Source: Chloroflexia bacterium
GTDB lineage: Bacteria; Chloroflexota; Chloroflexia; QHBQ01; JAICKM01
NCBI GenBank assembly: GCA_038228295.1
Contig: JBBRPH010000002.1
Location: 39,293-103,292 of the forward strand
Reading direction: 5' to 3'
Length of the DNA: 64,000 nt
Position numbers and translations under genes: made by a program. The notes below the pieces were generated by a model. The model searched no databases, was not told where the DNA came from, and saw only the letters and a list, made by a program, of their open reading frames with translations. This document shows, piece by piece, positions 38,718-47,166 of the stretch (its first letter is position 1; every line of letters begins with the position of its first letter).

Positions 38718-39242
38718 ATGCGTGTTATCTTGCTGGCCGCCGTGTCACTCGACGGCAAACTGGCCCGCGATGCCGCTCACCTGTCGGACTGGAGTTCGCC
38801 CGAAGATAAACGGCTGTTCCGCGCCGAGACGCGGCGGGCGGGCGTGCTGATTTTGGGCCACAATACCTACAAGACGTTGGCGCGCCCGCTGCCGGGCCGC
38901 CTCCATATCGTGCTGACGCGCACGCCGCCGGCTCAGGCCGGCATTCCGGGCGTAGTCGAGTTCACTGCCGCGCCGCCCGCCGCCCTGCTGGCCGATCTAG
39001 CCAAGCGCGGCTACACCAGCGCCGCGCTAATCGGCGGCGCGCAAATCAACGCGCTGTTCCTGGCCGCCGATCTGGTAGATGAGCTTTGGCTGACGGTGGA
39101 GCCGCTGATCTTCGGCGAAGGCATCCCGCTATTCACCGGCCGATCTTTCGACCGTCGCGCCCGCTTACTGGCCCTCACTCCTCTGAATGCCGATACGTTT
39201 CTGGCGCGCTATAGCTTGCGTGCGCCAGGCGGCGCATCTTAG
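38718..39242 (+). CDS. Dihydrofolate-reductase-family (RibD C-terminal domain) protein
   Basis: 'MRVILLAAVSLDGKLA...WSSPEDKRLF...AGVLILGHNTYKTL...GGAQINALFLAADLVDELWLTVEPLIFGEG'. Confidence 0.8.
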   Translation: MRVILLAAVSLDGKLARDAAHLSDWSSPEDKRLFRAETRRAGVLILGHNTYKTLARPLPGRLHIVLTRTPPAQAGIPGVVEFTAAPPAALLADLAKRGYTSAALIGGAQINALFLAADLVDELWLTVEPLIFGEGIPLFTGRSFDRRARLLALTPLNADTFLARYSLRAPGGAS

Positions 39243-39274
39243 CGCTACAGCGGTAGTCCGCCGGGCAAGGAAAA

Positions 39275-39303
39275 GCCCCAGTGGTTGGGCGAACCACCGG
39301 GGC
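39275..39303 (-). terminator. Rho-independent terminator (copy 1)
   Basis: 12-bp stem (one A.C mismatch), loop GGGCG. On the minus strand it is followed by CTTTTCC. Confidence 0.6.
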
Positions 39304-39420
39304 GATCCAAAGGAGGAAAGGTTCTTCTAATTAGTGTAACGCTTGAGCGTGCCCCGCGCTTCCATCACCATAAACGAGTTTTGCCGCGATTTTGCCGGCG
39401 GTATAAGCGGCAAAGGAAAA

Positions 39421-39449
39421 GCCCCAGCGGTTGGGCAGACCGCCGGGGC
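39421..39449 (-). terminator. Rho-independent terminator (copy 2), first terminator after pepF
   Basis: Same hairpin with a compensatory pair change (T:A to C:G), followed on the minus strand by CTTTTCCTTT. Lies ~90 nt after the pepF stop. Confidence 0.6.
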
Positions 39450-39538
39450 AATCCAAAGGAGGAAAGGTTCTTCTAATTAGTGTAACGCTTGAGCGTGCCC
39501 TGCGCTTCCATTCCTCTCCACGAATTTGGTGATCAATT

Positions 39539-41374
39539 TTATGCCGGTTGTGCCGGGGGTAGATTGCCGGTCGCGCCCAGCAGGCGCTCCATTTCGTCAA
39601 GCATCCCGCTGAACACATCGAGTGCCTGACGCACGGGTTCCGGCGAGGTCATATCCACTCCGGCATCGCGCAACAGGTCAATCGAGTAGGTGCTGCTGCC
39701 GCGCCCCAGGAAGCGCAAGTAGCGATCCACCGCCGGCTTGCCTTCGCGGATAATACTCTGGGCTAGCGCATTGGCCGCCGAGATGCCGGTAGCGTACTTG
39801 TAGACGTAGAAGCTGCTATAGAAATGCGGGATGCGAGCCCACTCGATAGCAATGGTTTCATCCGATATCACGCCGCTGCCGTAGTAGAGTTTGTTCAGAT
39901 CATAGTACAGTTCCGAAAGCCGATCGGCGGTTAGTGCTTCGCCGGCTTCCGCCGTTTCGTGCGCCAGCTTTTCGAACTCGGCGAACATCGTTTGGCGATA
40001 GAGCGTGGCGCGGAAGCCGTCGAGTTCGTTGTTGACTACCGCCAAGCGCAACTTGGGATCGCCTTCCTGCTGCAACAGGTGGTGGGTGAGCAGTGCCTCG
40101 TTGAGCGTGGAGGCCACCTCGGCCACGAAAATGGTGTAGTTGCCGTAGACAAAAGGCTGACCCCGGCGTGTGAAGTAGGAGTGCATGGCATGGCCCAGTT
40201 CGTGGGCCAGCGTAAACACATCGTTCAGCGTGTCCTGGTAGTTGAGCAAGATATACGGCGGAGTCGTGTACGATCCCCAGCTATACGCGCCGGAGCGTTT
40301 GTTGGGCGTTTCGTACACATCCACCCAGCGGCTGCTCATCAGGCCGGTTGTCGCGGCCTCACCGTAGGTTGTGCCCAGCGGGCGGAGCGCATCCAGCACC
40401 GTCTGCCGCGCCGCCGCGTAGGGGATCTGGGCAGCGCTCTCACCGATCAGCGGCACATGGAGGTCATACATATGTAATTGTTCCAGCCCCAACACGCGGC
40501 GGCGCAGATCTAGATAGCGGTGCAGCAGCGGCAGGCCGTTATGCACGGTGTCGATCAGGTTGGTGTAGACGGCGGAGGGGATGTTATCGCCGTAGAGCGC
40601 GGCTTCGAGGGCCGAGCCGTATTTGCGCGTGCGCGCTTGGAAGACGTTAGCCTTGACATTGGCTGCATATAGCGCGGCGCAGGTGTTGCGGTGAGCCTGA
40701 TAGGTCGCGTGCATTTTGAGGAACGCTTCGGCACGCAGCGGGCGATGTTGCGACTGCATGAACCGTCCGTAGCGGCCGTGCGTCAACGTAACTTCGGCCC
40801 CGCTTTCATCGGTCACGGTGCCGTAGGTCATGTCGGCGTTGTTCAACATGGAGAACACTGTGCCGGGCGCGTCGGCGATCTCGCTCATGCCGGCCAGAAG
40901 ATTTTCTTCCGCCGCCGATAGTACATGAGGCTTTTCCCGCAGCAGGTCGGCAAAAACATGGGCGTAGCCCTGGAGGTCCGGCTCCTCGCGCATATAGCGT
41001 TCCAGGGTGCCGTCGGGCAGCGCCAGCAGCTCCGGGCGCACAAACGAGCCGGCCGCGCCGACGCGGCTCATTAACTGCTGGGCGCGGTCAGCCGGCGCTT
41101 GATAGGCTGCATCGGTGGTGTCTTCATCGCGCTTCAGCATGGCGTAGACGGCTAATTGGTAGGTCAGTTCATGGATGCGGTCTTGTAGGCGGGTTGCCGC
41201 TAGCAGAGTCGCCGCGTCGGCCCCCAGGCGACCCTGGTAGCCGGTCAGTTCATCCAGCAGCGGCGTGATACGCGCGAAATCGGTTTCCCAGTGCGCGTTA
41301 TCGGCATACACCGGCGTGAGATCCCAGGTCAGTTCGACGGGCACCTCAGCGCGTGTCGGTAGCGTTGCGGTCAT
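39539..41374 (-). CDS. pepF: Oligoendopeptidase F (M3B family)
   Basis: 'HELGHAMHS' zinc motif and typical PepF N-terminus 'RAEVPVELTWDLTPVYADNAHWETDF'. ATG 41374 follows GAGAGGAGACAAGGAG (the tracked ORF extends 50 codons upstream). Confidence 0.9.
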   Translation of the reverse strand: MTATLPTRAEVPVELTWDLTPVYADNAHWETDFARITPLLDELTGYQGRLGADAATLLAATRLQDRIHELTYQLAVYAMLKRDEDTTDAAYQAPADRAQQLMSRVGAAGSFVRPELLALPDGTLERYMREEPDLQGYAHVFADLLREKPHVLSAAEENLLAGMSEIADAPGTVFSMLNNADMTYGTVTDESGAEVTLTHGRYGRFMQSQHRPLRAEAFLKMHATYQAHRNTCAALYAANVKANVFQARTRKYGSALEAALYGDNIPSAVYTNLIDTVHNGLPLLHRYLDLRRRVLGLEQLHMYDLHVPLIGESAAQIPYAAARQTVLDALRPLGTTYGEAATTGLMSSRWVDVYETPNKRSGAYSWGSYTTPPYILLNYQDTLNDVFTLAHELGHAMHSYFTRRGQPFVYGNYTIFVAEVASTLNEALLTHHLLQQEGDPKLRLAVVNNELDGFRATLYRQTMFAEFEKLAHETAEAGEALTADRLSELYYDLNKLYYGSGVISDETIAIEWARIPHFYSSFYVYKYATGISAANALAQSIIREGKPAVDRYLRFLGRGSSTYSIDLLRDAGVDMTSPEPVRQALDVFSGMLDEMERLLGATGNLPPAQPA

Positions 41375-41439
41375 AACTCCTTGTCTCCTCTCGCAGCCCA
41401 CCGAATCGCAGGTTGGGCCGCTGCTAATCCTTTGCGTCT

Positions 41440-41453
41440 GCTCTATTATACTC
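41440..41453 (-). promoter_or_regulatory. -10 core GAGTATAATAGAGC upstream of pepF
   Basis: Minus strand reads TATAAT at 41450-41445, followed by AGAGC, ~70 nt upstream of the pepF ATG. Confidence 0.35.
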
Positions 41454-41547
41454 GATTCCCGGTTTTCAGCGATCTTCCGGTCCCTTTTAGGGCAAAAGAA
41501 GGTGGGACTTGGGGCAGTGGGCATACTTTCTGCTGGGGAGGGCGGTG

Positions 41548-45275: not shown

Positions 45276-45456
45276 CCGGCCAGTGGGCTTGCCGGGTGTG
45301 CTATCAGGGCAGAGACGCCAGGATCAATGAGTGGGAGAAGCAGTAGCAAATAGATGCGCGCCGGCGCTGTCTTCTACCGGGGATAGCGCAAATTGCCGGC
45401 AGGTCTGCCGCTTGTTGGGCTGGGTCGTCTAAAACAACTTTCAAGGAGGAAAGAGT

Positions 45457-47166
45457 ATGAAGGCTAAAAGTTTGATGGGTTTGGCCGGCTCTGTGCTGGT
45501 CGGCTCAATGTTACTCAGCGCGTGCGGGGATACAGCGGCTACCACGGTGCCACAGGCAGGCGCGACGGCGGGTGCAGCGATGGGCACGGCCGGGGCAGGC
45601 GCAAGTACCGCTGTCACCGGCGCGGGTAGCGCCGCCGGCACGGCCGCAGCGGGCGCGGGCACCGCCGTCAGCGGCGCCGCCGGCACGGTCGGCGCGGGCG
45701 CGGGCACGGCGGCGGCGGGCGCAGGCACGGCTGTCAGCGGCGCAGCAGGCACGGTCGGCGCGGGCGCAGGCGATGTCATGGCGACCACCACCGCTGCCCA
45801 GGGCATGAACCAGGGCAATGCGATGGCGACCGGCACCGCGATGGCCGGCAACATGGCGATGGCAACGATGACCGCCGGTAGCATGATGACCGGCACCATG
45901 ATGCCTGGCGGCACCGCTACACCGAGCAGCATGATGGGCGGCATGGCTGCGTTCGATCCCGCTATGGTCAAAAAGGCCGATGTTGAGGCGGGTGCGACAA
46001 TCCGCATCTCCGGTGGTGGCAGCACCGCCGAGCAAGAGCAGTTTAAGCAACAACTGGCGCGCTTCGCCCAGGTCTATCCGGATATCAAAGTCAACTATGA
46101 GCCGAACCCGGAAGGCTACAACGATAAGTTGAAAGCGCAATTCACCAGCAACACCCAACCCGACGTTTTCAACTTTGAGCCGGGTCTGACCGACGTTTTG
46201 ATTGGTTCCAATAAAGTGCTGGATCTCGCCCCCTACATGACTGCTGCCGGCCATGCACCTAGCGACTATTTTCCGGGCCTGATCGCGATCTACCAACGTG
46301 GCGCTAAGGTCTACGGCTTGCCGCGTGACTTTAACTCACTAATGGTCTTCTACAATACCGATATGCTTGCTAAAACCGGGGCCACTGCGCCTAAAGACGG
46401 TTGGACGCAGGATGATTTCACGGCCTTCGCCAAAGCGATGACTAGCGGCACCGATAAGGCGACCAAAATCTACGGTACTGATACCGAAGCCGACTACGCC
46501 CGTTGGATGCCGTTCGCCCTTGCTAATGGGGCTAAACTGATGGACAACGGCAAATGCGCCATCAATAGCCCCATTGCCGTAGACGCGCTCAACTACTGGT
46601 ACGGCCTATGGAAAGCAGGCACCGCCTCGCAGAAATCTGATGTCGGTGCTGGTTGGGCCGGCGAAGCATTCGCTAAGCAACGTTCCGCGAGCGCCGTCGA
46701 AGGTGGTTGGCTGGTGCCCTTCCTATCCGATCCGAAGGGTGGATTCCAGAACGTGAAATACGATGTGGCTCCCCTGCCGGTTGGTAAGAACGGCGGCAAG
46801 GCTAACTTCCTATTCACCAACGCCTGGGGCGGTTCGGCCTCCAGCAAGTTCCCGAAGGCTACCGCCGCACTGATCATGTTCCTAGCCGGCCGCGAAAACG
46901 AGCAGCAAGTGTTGCAGTCCGGTTTCGCTCTGCCCTCGCTCAAGGGTTTCGATAACGATGCCTTCTTCCAGGGAACCGGCATCGTCAACAAGGTTGCAAA
47001 AGTCAACTACGCCTCCGGTGCCTATGGCATTGCCGACTACTATGGGCCTTCAACTAGCGCGATCCAAAAGGCACTCTCGAAGGCGTTGGAGCAGACCTTC
47101 GCCGGTACCGATGCCAAGACTGCCCTTGATGGCGCGTGCAAAGCTATTGATGCTGAAGCGCCGTAG
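45457..47166 (+). CDS. Sugar ABC transporter substrate-binding lipoprotein (family 1) with long low-complexity Ala/Gly/Thr/Met-rich linker
   Basis: Lipobox 'MLLSACGD'. ~150-aa linker, then a typical SBP_bac_1 domain ('IRISGGGSTAEQEQFKQQLARF..YPDIKVNYEP'). Strong RBS AAGGAGGAAAG. Confidence 0.85.
   Translation: MKAKSLMGLAGSVLVGSMLLSACGDTAATTVPQAGATAGAAMGTAGAGASTAVTGAGSAAGTAAAGAGTAVSGAAGTVGAGAGTAAAGAGTAVSGAAGTVGAGAGDVMATTTAAQGMNQGNAMATGTAMAGNMAMATMTAGSMMTGTMMPGGTATPSSMMGGMAAFDPAMVKKADVEAGATIRISGGGSTAEQEQFKQQLARFAQVYPDIKVNYEPNPEGYNDKLKAQFTSNTQPDVFNFEPGLTDVLIGSNKVLDLAPYMTAAGHAPSDYFPGLIAIYQRGAKVYGLPRDFNSLMVFYNTDMLAKTGATAPKDGWTQDDFTAFAKAMTSGTDKATKIYGTDTEADYARWMPFALANGAKLMDNGKCAINSPIAVDALNYWYGLWKAGTASQKSDVGAGWAGEAFAKQRSASAVEGGWLVPFLSDPKGGFQNVKYDVAPLPVGKNGGKANFLFTNAWGGSASSKFPKATAALIMFLAGRENEQQVLQSGFALPSLKGFDNDAFFQGTGIVNKVAKVNYASGAYGIADYYGPSTSAIQKALSKALEQTFAGTDAKTALDGACKAIDAEAP
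45637..45768. repeat. 66-nt tandem duplication inside the SBP linker
   Basis: Units 45637-45702 and 45703-45768 both encode 'GTAAAGAGTAVSGAAGTVGAGA' with synonymous differences. Confidence 0.85.

Follow-up and report, generated by a model that had tools for sequence, protein, structure and literature searches.

Several groups of bacterial small RNAs (sRNAs) offer comparisons for the element described here, a ~100-nt module which stands twice in tandem in a stretch of 64,000 nt from a Chloroflexia bacterium (contig JBBRPH010000002.1; the whole stretch is called the window below). RybB, MicA and MicL of Enterobacteria are transcribed from promoters of sigma-E, a sigma factor of the extracytoplasmic function (ECF) type, and are short RNAs whose 5'-terminal seed is conserved and which end at a Rho-independent terminator. 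Their effect is a reduced synthesis of abundant exported envelope proteins, MicL acting on the lipoprotein Lpp. NsiR1 (RF02399), the nitrogen-stress sRNA of cyanobacteria, is encoded in tandem arrays where every repeat has its own promoter and terminator. RsaE/RoxS from Firmicutes and NfeR1/alpha-r14 from rhizobia direct unpaired C/U-rich motifs against Shine-Dalgarno (SD) sequences of the GGAGG type and repress translation of multiple targets. We know of no sRNA with a defined function from Chloroflexota. In the Rhizobiales (Agrobacterium, Sinorhizobium, Brucella), AbcR1 and AbcR2 are encoded by tandem homologous genes, expose CU-rich motifs of anti-SD type which pair with translation-initiation regions, and have the periplasmic binding proteins of ABC transporters as their main regulon (PMC4152367, PMC3712013).

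We consider it moderately probable that each copy of the module in the window is a self-contained gene for a ~62-nt trans-acting RNA, read from the minus strand and acting as an anti-SD repressor. The ~100-nt module is predicted to consist of ~40 nt of promoter followed by the ~62-nt RNA. Transcription would start at ~39328 in copy 1 and ~39474 in copy 2, from a non-sigma-70, ECF-like promoter with phased A-tracts, and would end at an intrinsic terminator. For copy 1 the 5' end was placed by promoter geometry and the onset of invariance, and the 3' end by the terminator. The CUUUCCUCCUUUGGA part of the RNA, which has CCUCCUUU in common with the 3' tail of 16S rRNA, would pair with SD regions of the form (U)CCAAAGGAGGAA(AG) and block 30S binding, giving less translation and perhaps less mRNA stability. 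The best-supported class of targets would be mRNAs of the extracellular solute-binding lipoproteins of ABC transporters; further targets may be found among transport or exported proteins whose SD sequences are extended and A-rich. The sRNA thus probably turns down the translation of binding proteins for nutrient uptake. The elements of the two copies are as follows.

39267 to 39328, minus strand: predicted sRNA copy 1, ~62 nt, 5'-AGAAGAACCUUUCCUCCUUUGGAUC-hairpin-UUUUCCUU-3' (covariance model match of 95.1 bits at 39261-39366)
39309 to 39328, minus strand: seed of copy 1, AGAAGAACCUUUCCUCCUUU, with CCUCC at 39312-39316; invariant in 44 homologs, an extra C aside
39275 to 39303, minus strand: terminator hairpin of copy 1, 12 bp, loop CGCCC within an invariant GCCCAA
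39337 to 39363, minus strand: core promoter of copy 1, -35-like GGAAGC (39363-39358), 16-nt spacer, -10-like CGTTA (39341-39337)
39364 to 39400, minus strand: upstream A-tract element of copy 1, GGCAAAATCGCGGCAAAACTCGT..., UP-element-like
39413 to 39474, minus strand: predicted sRNA copy 2, ~62 nt (covariance model match of 97.2 bits at 39407-39512; terminator; fold)
39455 to 39474, 39421 to 39449 and 39413 to 39420, minus strand: seed, hairpin and U-tract of copy 2
39483 to 39509, minus strand: core promoter of copy 2, GGAAGC (39509-39504), N16, CGTTA (39487-39483)

A repeat search returned the copies as a direct repeat (39262-39381 and 39408-39527) with a period of 146 nt and 88% identity over 120 nt, and by BLAST the ~100-nt core (99 nt aligned) was 94% identical between them. 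Both copies are held in a 296-nt gap between a RibD_C/DHFR-like gene and the convergent pepF. An earlier note, made from the letters of the window, had described two direct copies between these genes, each with a GC hairpin and a terminator in the pepF direction on the minus strand, six substitutions between the copies, a compensatory pair among them, and a fully identical core of 50 nt. All these particulars were reproduced by our alignments and terminator calls (39303-39275 and 39449-39421). Of the six positions differing in the pairwise alignment, the promoter spacer (CGG/CAG) and the stem base (C/T) account for one each and the upper stem and loop (UC/CU) for two; the last two form the compensatory pair, T39282:A39296 in copy 1 versus C39428:G39442 in copy 2, that is U-A versus C-G on the RNA strand. 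The 50-nt run GGGCACGCTCAAGCGTTACACTAATTAGAAGAACCTTTCCTCCTTTGGAT was unchanged. The length of ~100 nt given in the note held for the extent of the repeat but not for the transcript, predicted to be ~62 nt after ~40 nt of promoter. Within the window alone, four of six substitutions in the hairpin and a 50-nt identical run make a statistically weak pattern, and the case therefore rests on relatives. The spacer between the copies is ~50% identical, which is explained by the recurrence of the A-tract block described below. The nearly identical promoter spacers, together with the diverged A-tract region, suggest a recent gene conversion or re-duplication of the core. Two metagenome loci (L202 and L207, from Ga0123336/Ga0123338) are close relatives of the window species with a GAACC insertion in common; they carry two sRNA copies 555 nt apart. 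The promoter spacers of those copies have diverged, so that this duplication is older than the nearly identical tandem pair in the window.

In the 5.68-Mb assembly the module was present only as the two copies of the window, which answers the question of further copies in the genome. When one copy was compared by BLAST with 60 relatives, the strong matches all fell in three families of a single order, and there was only noise elsewhere. An exact-pattern scan of species genomes found 37 contigs, every one labelled as a metagenome-assembled genome of uncultured Chloroflexia or Chloroflexota. A covariance model (R1), built from 35 distinct copies (alignment A2), matched 38 of the order's 40 species genomes over its full length, with 92-117 bits; these 38 span three families and five genera. 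In ~210 other Chloroflexia genomes, from a class sample of 251, the model gave at most weak matches confined to the terminator; the module was not found there. It was also found on 13 metagenome contigs of the Joint Genome Institute (JGI). Genomes carry a single locus. Most lineages have one copy, as does the closest species genome, and two to three copies, mostly in tandem, were found in five of the seven genomes of the window's genus; most simply, these would give a higher dosage. Across the 64-kb window, the 4227 covariance models of Rfam 15, which include NsiR1, Spot 42 and Chloroflexi and alpha-proteobacterial sRNA motifs, gave no match at gathering score. The best match below threshold was NsiR1 (19.4 bits versus a gathering score of 39, E = 0.43), essentially to the terminator hairpin only.

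The anatomy of the module was read from 44 distinct copies (alignment A3). On the minus strand, 5' to 3', it consists of A-tracts, xGAAGC, N16, CGTTA, ~8 variable nt, the seed, GGAUA with the hairpin, and a U-rich tail. The 5' segment of the RNA, AGAAGAA(C)CUUUCCUCCUUU, or AGAAGAAC(C)UUUCCUCCUUU, was invariant in all 44, the extra C occurring only in the window's sublineage. The first 19-20 nt were unpaired in the minimum free energy or centroid structure of all five members folded. Invariance begins at the predicted +1 and spans exactly the predicted single-stranded stretch, an accessible and conserved seed as expected of a trans-acting base-pairing sRNA. Across homologs the stem has 11-12 bp with GCCCAA invariant in the loop. 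In copy 1 it is lengthened by pairing of GGA (39306-39308) with UCC (39269-39271); these basal GGA/UCC pairs are 100% paired across the alignment, with G-C replaced by A-U in five sequences. Over the stem 99.2% of cells were paired, compensatory changes were seen in seven of the 11 pairs, and none of 500 shuffled alignments was as good. The stems of 12 and 11 bp in the window are followed on the minus strand by UUUUCCUU, and form intrinsic terminators. The U-tract is interrupted (UUUUCC, UUUGUCC), with a conserved UCC in the U-rich tail. Read on the minus strand, the stem has ~18 G.U cells versus four non-standard cells (at least one of them C.A), and the U-tract follows the hairpin on this strand only; from the excess of G.U and the U-tract, the transcribed strand is the minus strand. 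Conservation and folding together show an RNA in which one long hairpin comes after a 5' segment that is both unstructured and invariant. A pseudoknot of UUGGG with the GCCCAA loop was considered and set aside as sterically doubtful, with linkers of 0-1 nt. The earlier note had expected that the module would recur in close relatives, that the CCUCC core would hold when more copies were aligned, and that selection keeps both hairpin structure and core sequence; the distribution over the order, the invariance and the covariation in relatives agree with it on all three. Judged by its sequence, the module makes up a new family of predicted sRNAs, known in functional kind and confined to a single uncultured order.

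Compared with the described systems, the predicted RNA belongs to none of these families, as it has no Rfam match. It shows no similarity in sequence or structure to AbcR1/AbcR2, for which no Rfam match was obtained at any threshold used. The AbcR RNAs are longer, have several hairpins and depend on Hfq, whereas here there is one 5' seed and one hairpin; phylum and promoter type differ as well. The resemblance, which we take as an analogy, is functional and architectural only. Like NsiR1, the RNA would be ~60 nt long and tandem, but the sub-threshold match does not make it a member. The sigma-E sRNAs are Hfq-dependent and pair mostly outside the SD core, whereas the seed here contains the full anti-SD CCUCC; dependence on an ECF factor is suggested here by the promoter motif only, with AAG instead of AAC in the -35 box. 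RsaE/RoxS and NfeR1/alpha-r14 have no homology to the window RNA and use several short loop motifs, in contrast to a single 5'-terminal stretch of 19-20 invariant nt.

The predicted promoter has two conserved blocks. Over the 44 homologs GAAG and CGT were invariant and the distance of N16 was fixed, while the spacer itself varied freely, a pattern typical of promoters. Upstream of the -35 box, AAAWTTG-N7-AAAAYTSG was found in most homologs, whichever gene adjoins. A scan of the sRNA promoter region with the housekeeping sigma-70 consensus gave no match. In some genomes of genus g3 a helix across the promoter blocks (CGAAC...GTTCG) could be drawn; it was 69% paired in an inconsistent register, and was treated as spacer. 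The consensus of ECF-class promoters in B. subtilis is tGAAACnTTTt / CGTA-CGTC (PMC5758882), and for Streptomyces, control of a sigma-70-type gene by an ECF factor has been documented (PMC12019637). The invariant CGT and the N16 spacing, kept in 44 of 44 copies, agree with an ECF -10 region, CGT(A/C/T) at 16-17 nt from the -35 element. If the C of CGT is at -12, as it is in solved ECF open complexes (PMC12019637), the start would be at the first invariant A, ~39328 and ~39474, and the RNAs would have ~62 nt.

The genome has 29 genes of the sigma-70 family, ~24 of them ECF-sized, in an assembly ~90% complete. When a position weight matrix of the sRNA promoter was run upstream of these 29 genes, there was a single outlier, GTGAAACTTTT-N-CGTTATAT, ~150 nt upstream of a gene for a 377-aa group-2-like sigma factor (G000 C80:10371-10404, outside the window). 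A box of the form [G/C/T]TGAAAC(TT)-N~17-CGTTA(A/T)ATA recurred upstream of ~24 of the 29 orthologs, whose loci (L151-L180) come from all three families of the order; the spacer varies among them. In G000 it lies downstream of a canonical TTGACA-N17-TACAAT promoter. Its TGAAAC(TTTT) equals the ECF-class consensus tGAAACnTTTt (PMC5758882), and it differs from the sRNA box by one -35 base (AAG versus AAC) and one nt of spacing (N16 versus N17). The conserved box suggests a cascade from an alternative sigma factor to the group-2 sigma factor. Speculatively, a stress sigma factor would turn on the sRNA together with the group-2 sigma gene from the same type of promoter, and the effect of such a circuit would be a curbed synthesis of abundant exported proteins. 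A looser scan for GAA[AG]C-N16-17-CGT[TA]A returned intergenic boxes at G000 C20:2955 (+), C26:65031 (+) and C127:3291 (-), for example AGTGAAACCTTTGTTGGGGAGAGCGCGTTATTAGG; they are possible members of the same sRNA-promoter regulon.

The seed holds CCUCCUUU, 8 nt which also stand in the 16S tail found in this genome, GGAUCACCUCCUUUCU, and the RNA would therefore compete with that tail for the same mRNA sites. The flanks are different, CUUU- and -GGAU in the sRNA versus CA- and -CU in 16S rRNA, so that the sRNA prefers CCAAAGGAGGAAAG and the 16S tail AGAAAGGAGGUG, with AUCCAAAGGAGGAAAG as the ideal partner of the sRNA. There were 15 non-self sites in the genome with at least 11 contiguous complementary nt. 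Fourteen of them contained a GGAGG core, and 11 lay 6-13 nt upstream of the start codon of an open reading frame (ORF) of at least 88 aa. Six of these sites belonged to SBP_bac_1/SBP_bac_8 genes, of which the genome has 19. The sequence GGAGGAAAG occurred 16 times outside the sRNA genes, ten times at ribosome-binding sites, and seven of these ten precede lipobox proteins. Over 1120 GGAGG ribosome-binding sites the flank complementary to the seed was longer for lipobox proteins (mean 2.04 versus 0.99 nt; Mann-Whitney p = 2.5e-7), and CC preceded AAAGGAGG in 10 of 40 such sites versus ~10% expected.

The top target by energy was a 467-aa SBP_bac_8 lipoprotein. Most of its orthologs (67-86% identity, all three families represented) keep (U)UUCCA(A/G)AGGAGGAA, while the rest of the 5' untranslated region (UTR) could not be aligned. 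The conserved block UCCA(A/G)AGGAGGAA is a 13-nt match to the seed, in which the A-to-G change retains pairing as G.U; its UCC flank has no complementarity to the 16S tail. The predicted pairing is that of UUCCUCCUUUGGA with UCCAAAGGAGGAA in this conserved sugar-binding-protein leader. The conservation of the leader is the strongest single piece of target evidence. In the window, one candidate site is the ribosome-binding site of a solute-binding lipoprotein of the sugar type (SBP_bac_1 match at C2:85310-86191), 6 kb from the sRNA pair. Two SBP leaders with such sites are:

Upstream of G000 C1:221911: leader of a solute-binding protein (SBP), containing UUCCAAAGGAGGAAG
45442 to 45459, plus strand: candidate target site, CAAGGAGGAAAG (45442-45453) followed by AGT and ATG, 11 nt complementary to the seed (prediction)

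Genes of solute-binding lipoproteins in G000 (e.g., C2:151746, C3:140531, C15, C34, C38, C106) have a near-identical translation-initiation region, AGGAGGAAAG-N2-4-ATG/GTG, after which they encode a Lys/Arg-rich N-terminus plus an LxxCG lipobox, despite highly diverged proteins.

A number of observations weigh against a repressor of this kind, and they concern the targets, the RNA itself and the promoter. Firstly, the enrichment of SBP genes is confounded, as these genes generally have strong A-rich SD sequences, and sequence analysis can tell the target class only in part from what a strong SD would produce by itself. In two Chloroflexia genomes lacking the sRNA the SBP leaders looked similar, with no clear difference; the samples of this comparison were small, and the mean duplex energies of SBP ribosome-binding sites were about -15.8 versus -18.2 kcal/mol. 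At cbiM the genome has its longest match, of 14 nt, but cbiM was rejected as a conserved target because orthologs do not keep the match. Secondly, anti-SD pairing needs ~13 nt, yet 19-20 nt are invariant, and neither the constant 5' AGAAGAAC nor the constant GCCCAA loop is accounted for by pairing with the SD. No homologs of Hfq or CsrA were detected, in a weak tblastn search with approximate queries against an assembly 90% complete. Thirdly, the sRNA promoters read [T/G]GAAG[C/A], with AAG invariant where ECF -35 boxes have AAC; among the 29 sigma-70-family genes in the ~90% complete assembly, no ECF-sized one had a strong promoter match upstream that would mark it as the cognate factor; and the bare promoter pattern occurred 45 times in the genome versus 48 expected, with no sigma gene downstream. 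A candidate cognate ECF gene at C12 was discarded, its weak motif being inside a coding frame of 294 aa. As the -35 box and spacing differ, no cognate sigma factor was found and the pattern is not enriched, we keep the ECF assignment at the level of analogy: the sRNA promoter resembles ECF promoters, a supported likeness and not a demonstrated dependence.

A wider form of the proposal makes room for some of this. Here the RNA would be a stress-induced competitor of the ribosome with an extended anti-SD, co-induced with the group-2 sigma factor by an ECF-type sigma factor, working without Hfq on the whole exported and transport proteome. It would outcompete 30S subunits on the strongest A-flanked SD sites, those of solute-binding lipoproteins first, and additional interactions would be made through the GCCCAA loop and the invariant 5' end, AGAAGAAC. 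We offer this only tentatively, and think it rather unlikely in its entirety.

The same excess of invariance, 19-20 nt and the GCCCAA loop beyond the needs of SD pairing, is an argument for a protein-binding or decoy RNA. Its 5' segment would mimic the 3' tail of 16S rRNA through CCUCCUUU, or form a specific protein site, and would titrate a factor acting on the 16S tail or on purine-rich (AGA AGA AC) RNA, such as an RNase, S1/bS21, an initiation or hibernation factor, or a toxin nuclease. The 8-nt identity with the 16S tail, the partial confounding of the target evidence by SD strength, the lack of conservation of the cbiM match and the failure of the weak tblastn search to detect Hfq all fit with it. 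The mimicry is, however, of 8 nt only, with flanks unlike those of 16S rRNA, and no candidate protein partner was identified. A pure decoy does not predict a 13-nt complementary block kept in the SBP leader across three families, with a change that preserves pairing as G.U. We judge a decoy improbable, and return to the anti-SD repressor for the discussion of the locus.

The genes flanking the module are stable inside genera and different between genera. In the window they are:

38718 to 39242, plus strand: RibD_C/DHFR-like gene, convergent with the sRNA pair (Pfam PF01872, 8.4e-18; PF00186, 6.4e-14)
39539 to 41524, minus strand: pepF (oligopeptidase F, peptidase M3), upstream neighbour on the same strand (PF01432, 5.8e-77; PF08439, 6.4e-25)

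The core promoter of copy 2 begins 30 nt past the pepF stop codon. The arrangement of pepF and sRNA is conserved in no genus but the window's. Across much of the second family a 355-aa membrane protein is encoded upstream, with the stop codon within the -35-like box; the third family has another membrane protein there, and other loci have divergent upstream genes. About ten loci of genus g3 have a large same-strand gene 118-460 nt downstream. This last arrangement could be taken for a cis-acting leader or attenuator, where conditional termination controls read-through into the downstream gene, in the second family often one for a secreted protein of >1000 aa. However, the large secreted-protein genes carry their own canonical promoter (TTGnnn/TATAAT), placed after the terminator and ahead of the start codon; in the window the gene downstream is convergent, and contexts vary among families. 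No conserved anti-terminator fold was seen, the 5' segment being predicted unpaired, and tandem copies would make no sense; an attenuator is thus very improbable. Unrelated contexts and downstream genes with promoters of their own point to an autonomous gene, neither a pepF 3'UTR nor a leader.

Some further observations were made at these loci. In eight g3 loci (L044, L047, L049, L056, L057, L060, L066, L067) the sRNA gene lies between the gene of the 355-aa membrane protein, whose C-terminus reads ...WYxVWxxLVFP...LGWF, and that of the secreted protein, which has >1000 aa, a motif SLVISQVYGGGGNSGA.YKNDFIE, an SLH-like C-terminus and its own TTGCTT/TATAAT promoter. Heptamers, (CACGCAT)n and (GATCCCT)n, occur ~40-90 nt upstream of the module in L023 and L024 (G008, G007), and short tandem repeats, (GACGCCAA)n-like and (GGACGAT)n, downstream of the sRNA gene in L047 and L055. 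Two minus-strand reading frames in the window were examined and rejected. A 95-aa ORF (39331-39618), running from the 3' end of pepF through copy 2 into copy 1, crosses promoter and terminator in differing frames and is almost certainly spurious. The small ORF MEA(R/Q)GTLKRYTN from the start of the repeat has neither frame nor stop conserved in relatives, and its middle is the freely varying promoter spacer.

The earlier note had left two possibilities side by side, a duplicated pepF 3'UTR or terminator and a regulatory RNA, the latter perhaps derived from a 3'UTR. As a passive duplicate with no function of its own, similar through recent duplication, the pair would account for copies placed directly after the pepF stop with both terminators in the pepF direction, for near-identical promoter spacers, which indicate recent duplication or gene conversion, and for the single copy in the nearest species genome. 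It is contradicted by the distribution, with the module in 38 of 40 genomes and mostly away from pepF, and by the 19-20 invariant nt outside the hairpin and the conserved promoter-like blocks, and we give it hardly any credence. Of the two possibilities it is thus the regulatory RNA which gained, being order-wide, in varied contexts, with an invariant seed and a covarying hairpin; an origin from a 3'UTR was not borne out, each copy having a conserved two-block promoter. A functional plus strand, in which the hairpin and a AAAGGAGG ribosome-binding site would serve a small ORF, or a function of the DNA itself as a protein-binding or REP-like repeat, has a next to negligible chance, for although the hairpin is followed on that strand by AAAGGAGGAAAG, a perfect SD, and folds as stably as on the minus strand, no start codon is conserved 5-12 nt past the SD, the 63-aa ORF changes frame from one copy to the other, their period of 146 nt not being divisible by 3, the minus-strand G.U pairs would become A.C mismatches, U-tract and promoter blocks fit the minus strand only, and one locus per genome makes no dispersed repeat.

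The order in question has no cultured representative in the collections searched, and the matching records are all metagenome-assembled genomes. Nearly universal in the order and with a clean anatomy of promoter, seed and terminator, the sRNA is a candidate for a new Rfam family, and may give access to the question of how abundant soil bacteria control nutrient uptake after transcription. The promoter type common to the sRNA and the group-2 sigma gene points to a conserved alternative-sigma regulon, which could be mapped by comparative genomics. Should the RNA indeed act as a competitor of the ribosome, it would give the phylum its first sRNA regulon and sigma-sRNA circuit to be defined, and would represent a re-programming of translation, without Hfq, across a whole order of uncultured soil Chloroflexia.

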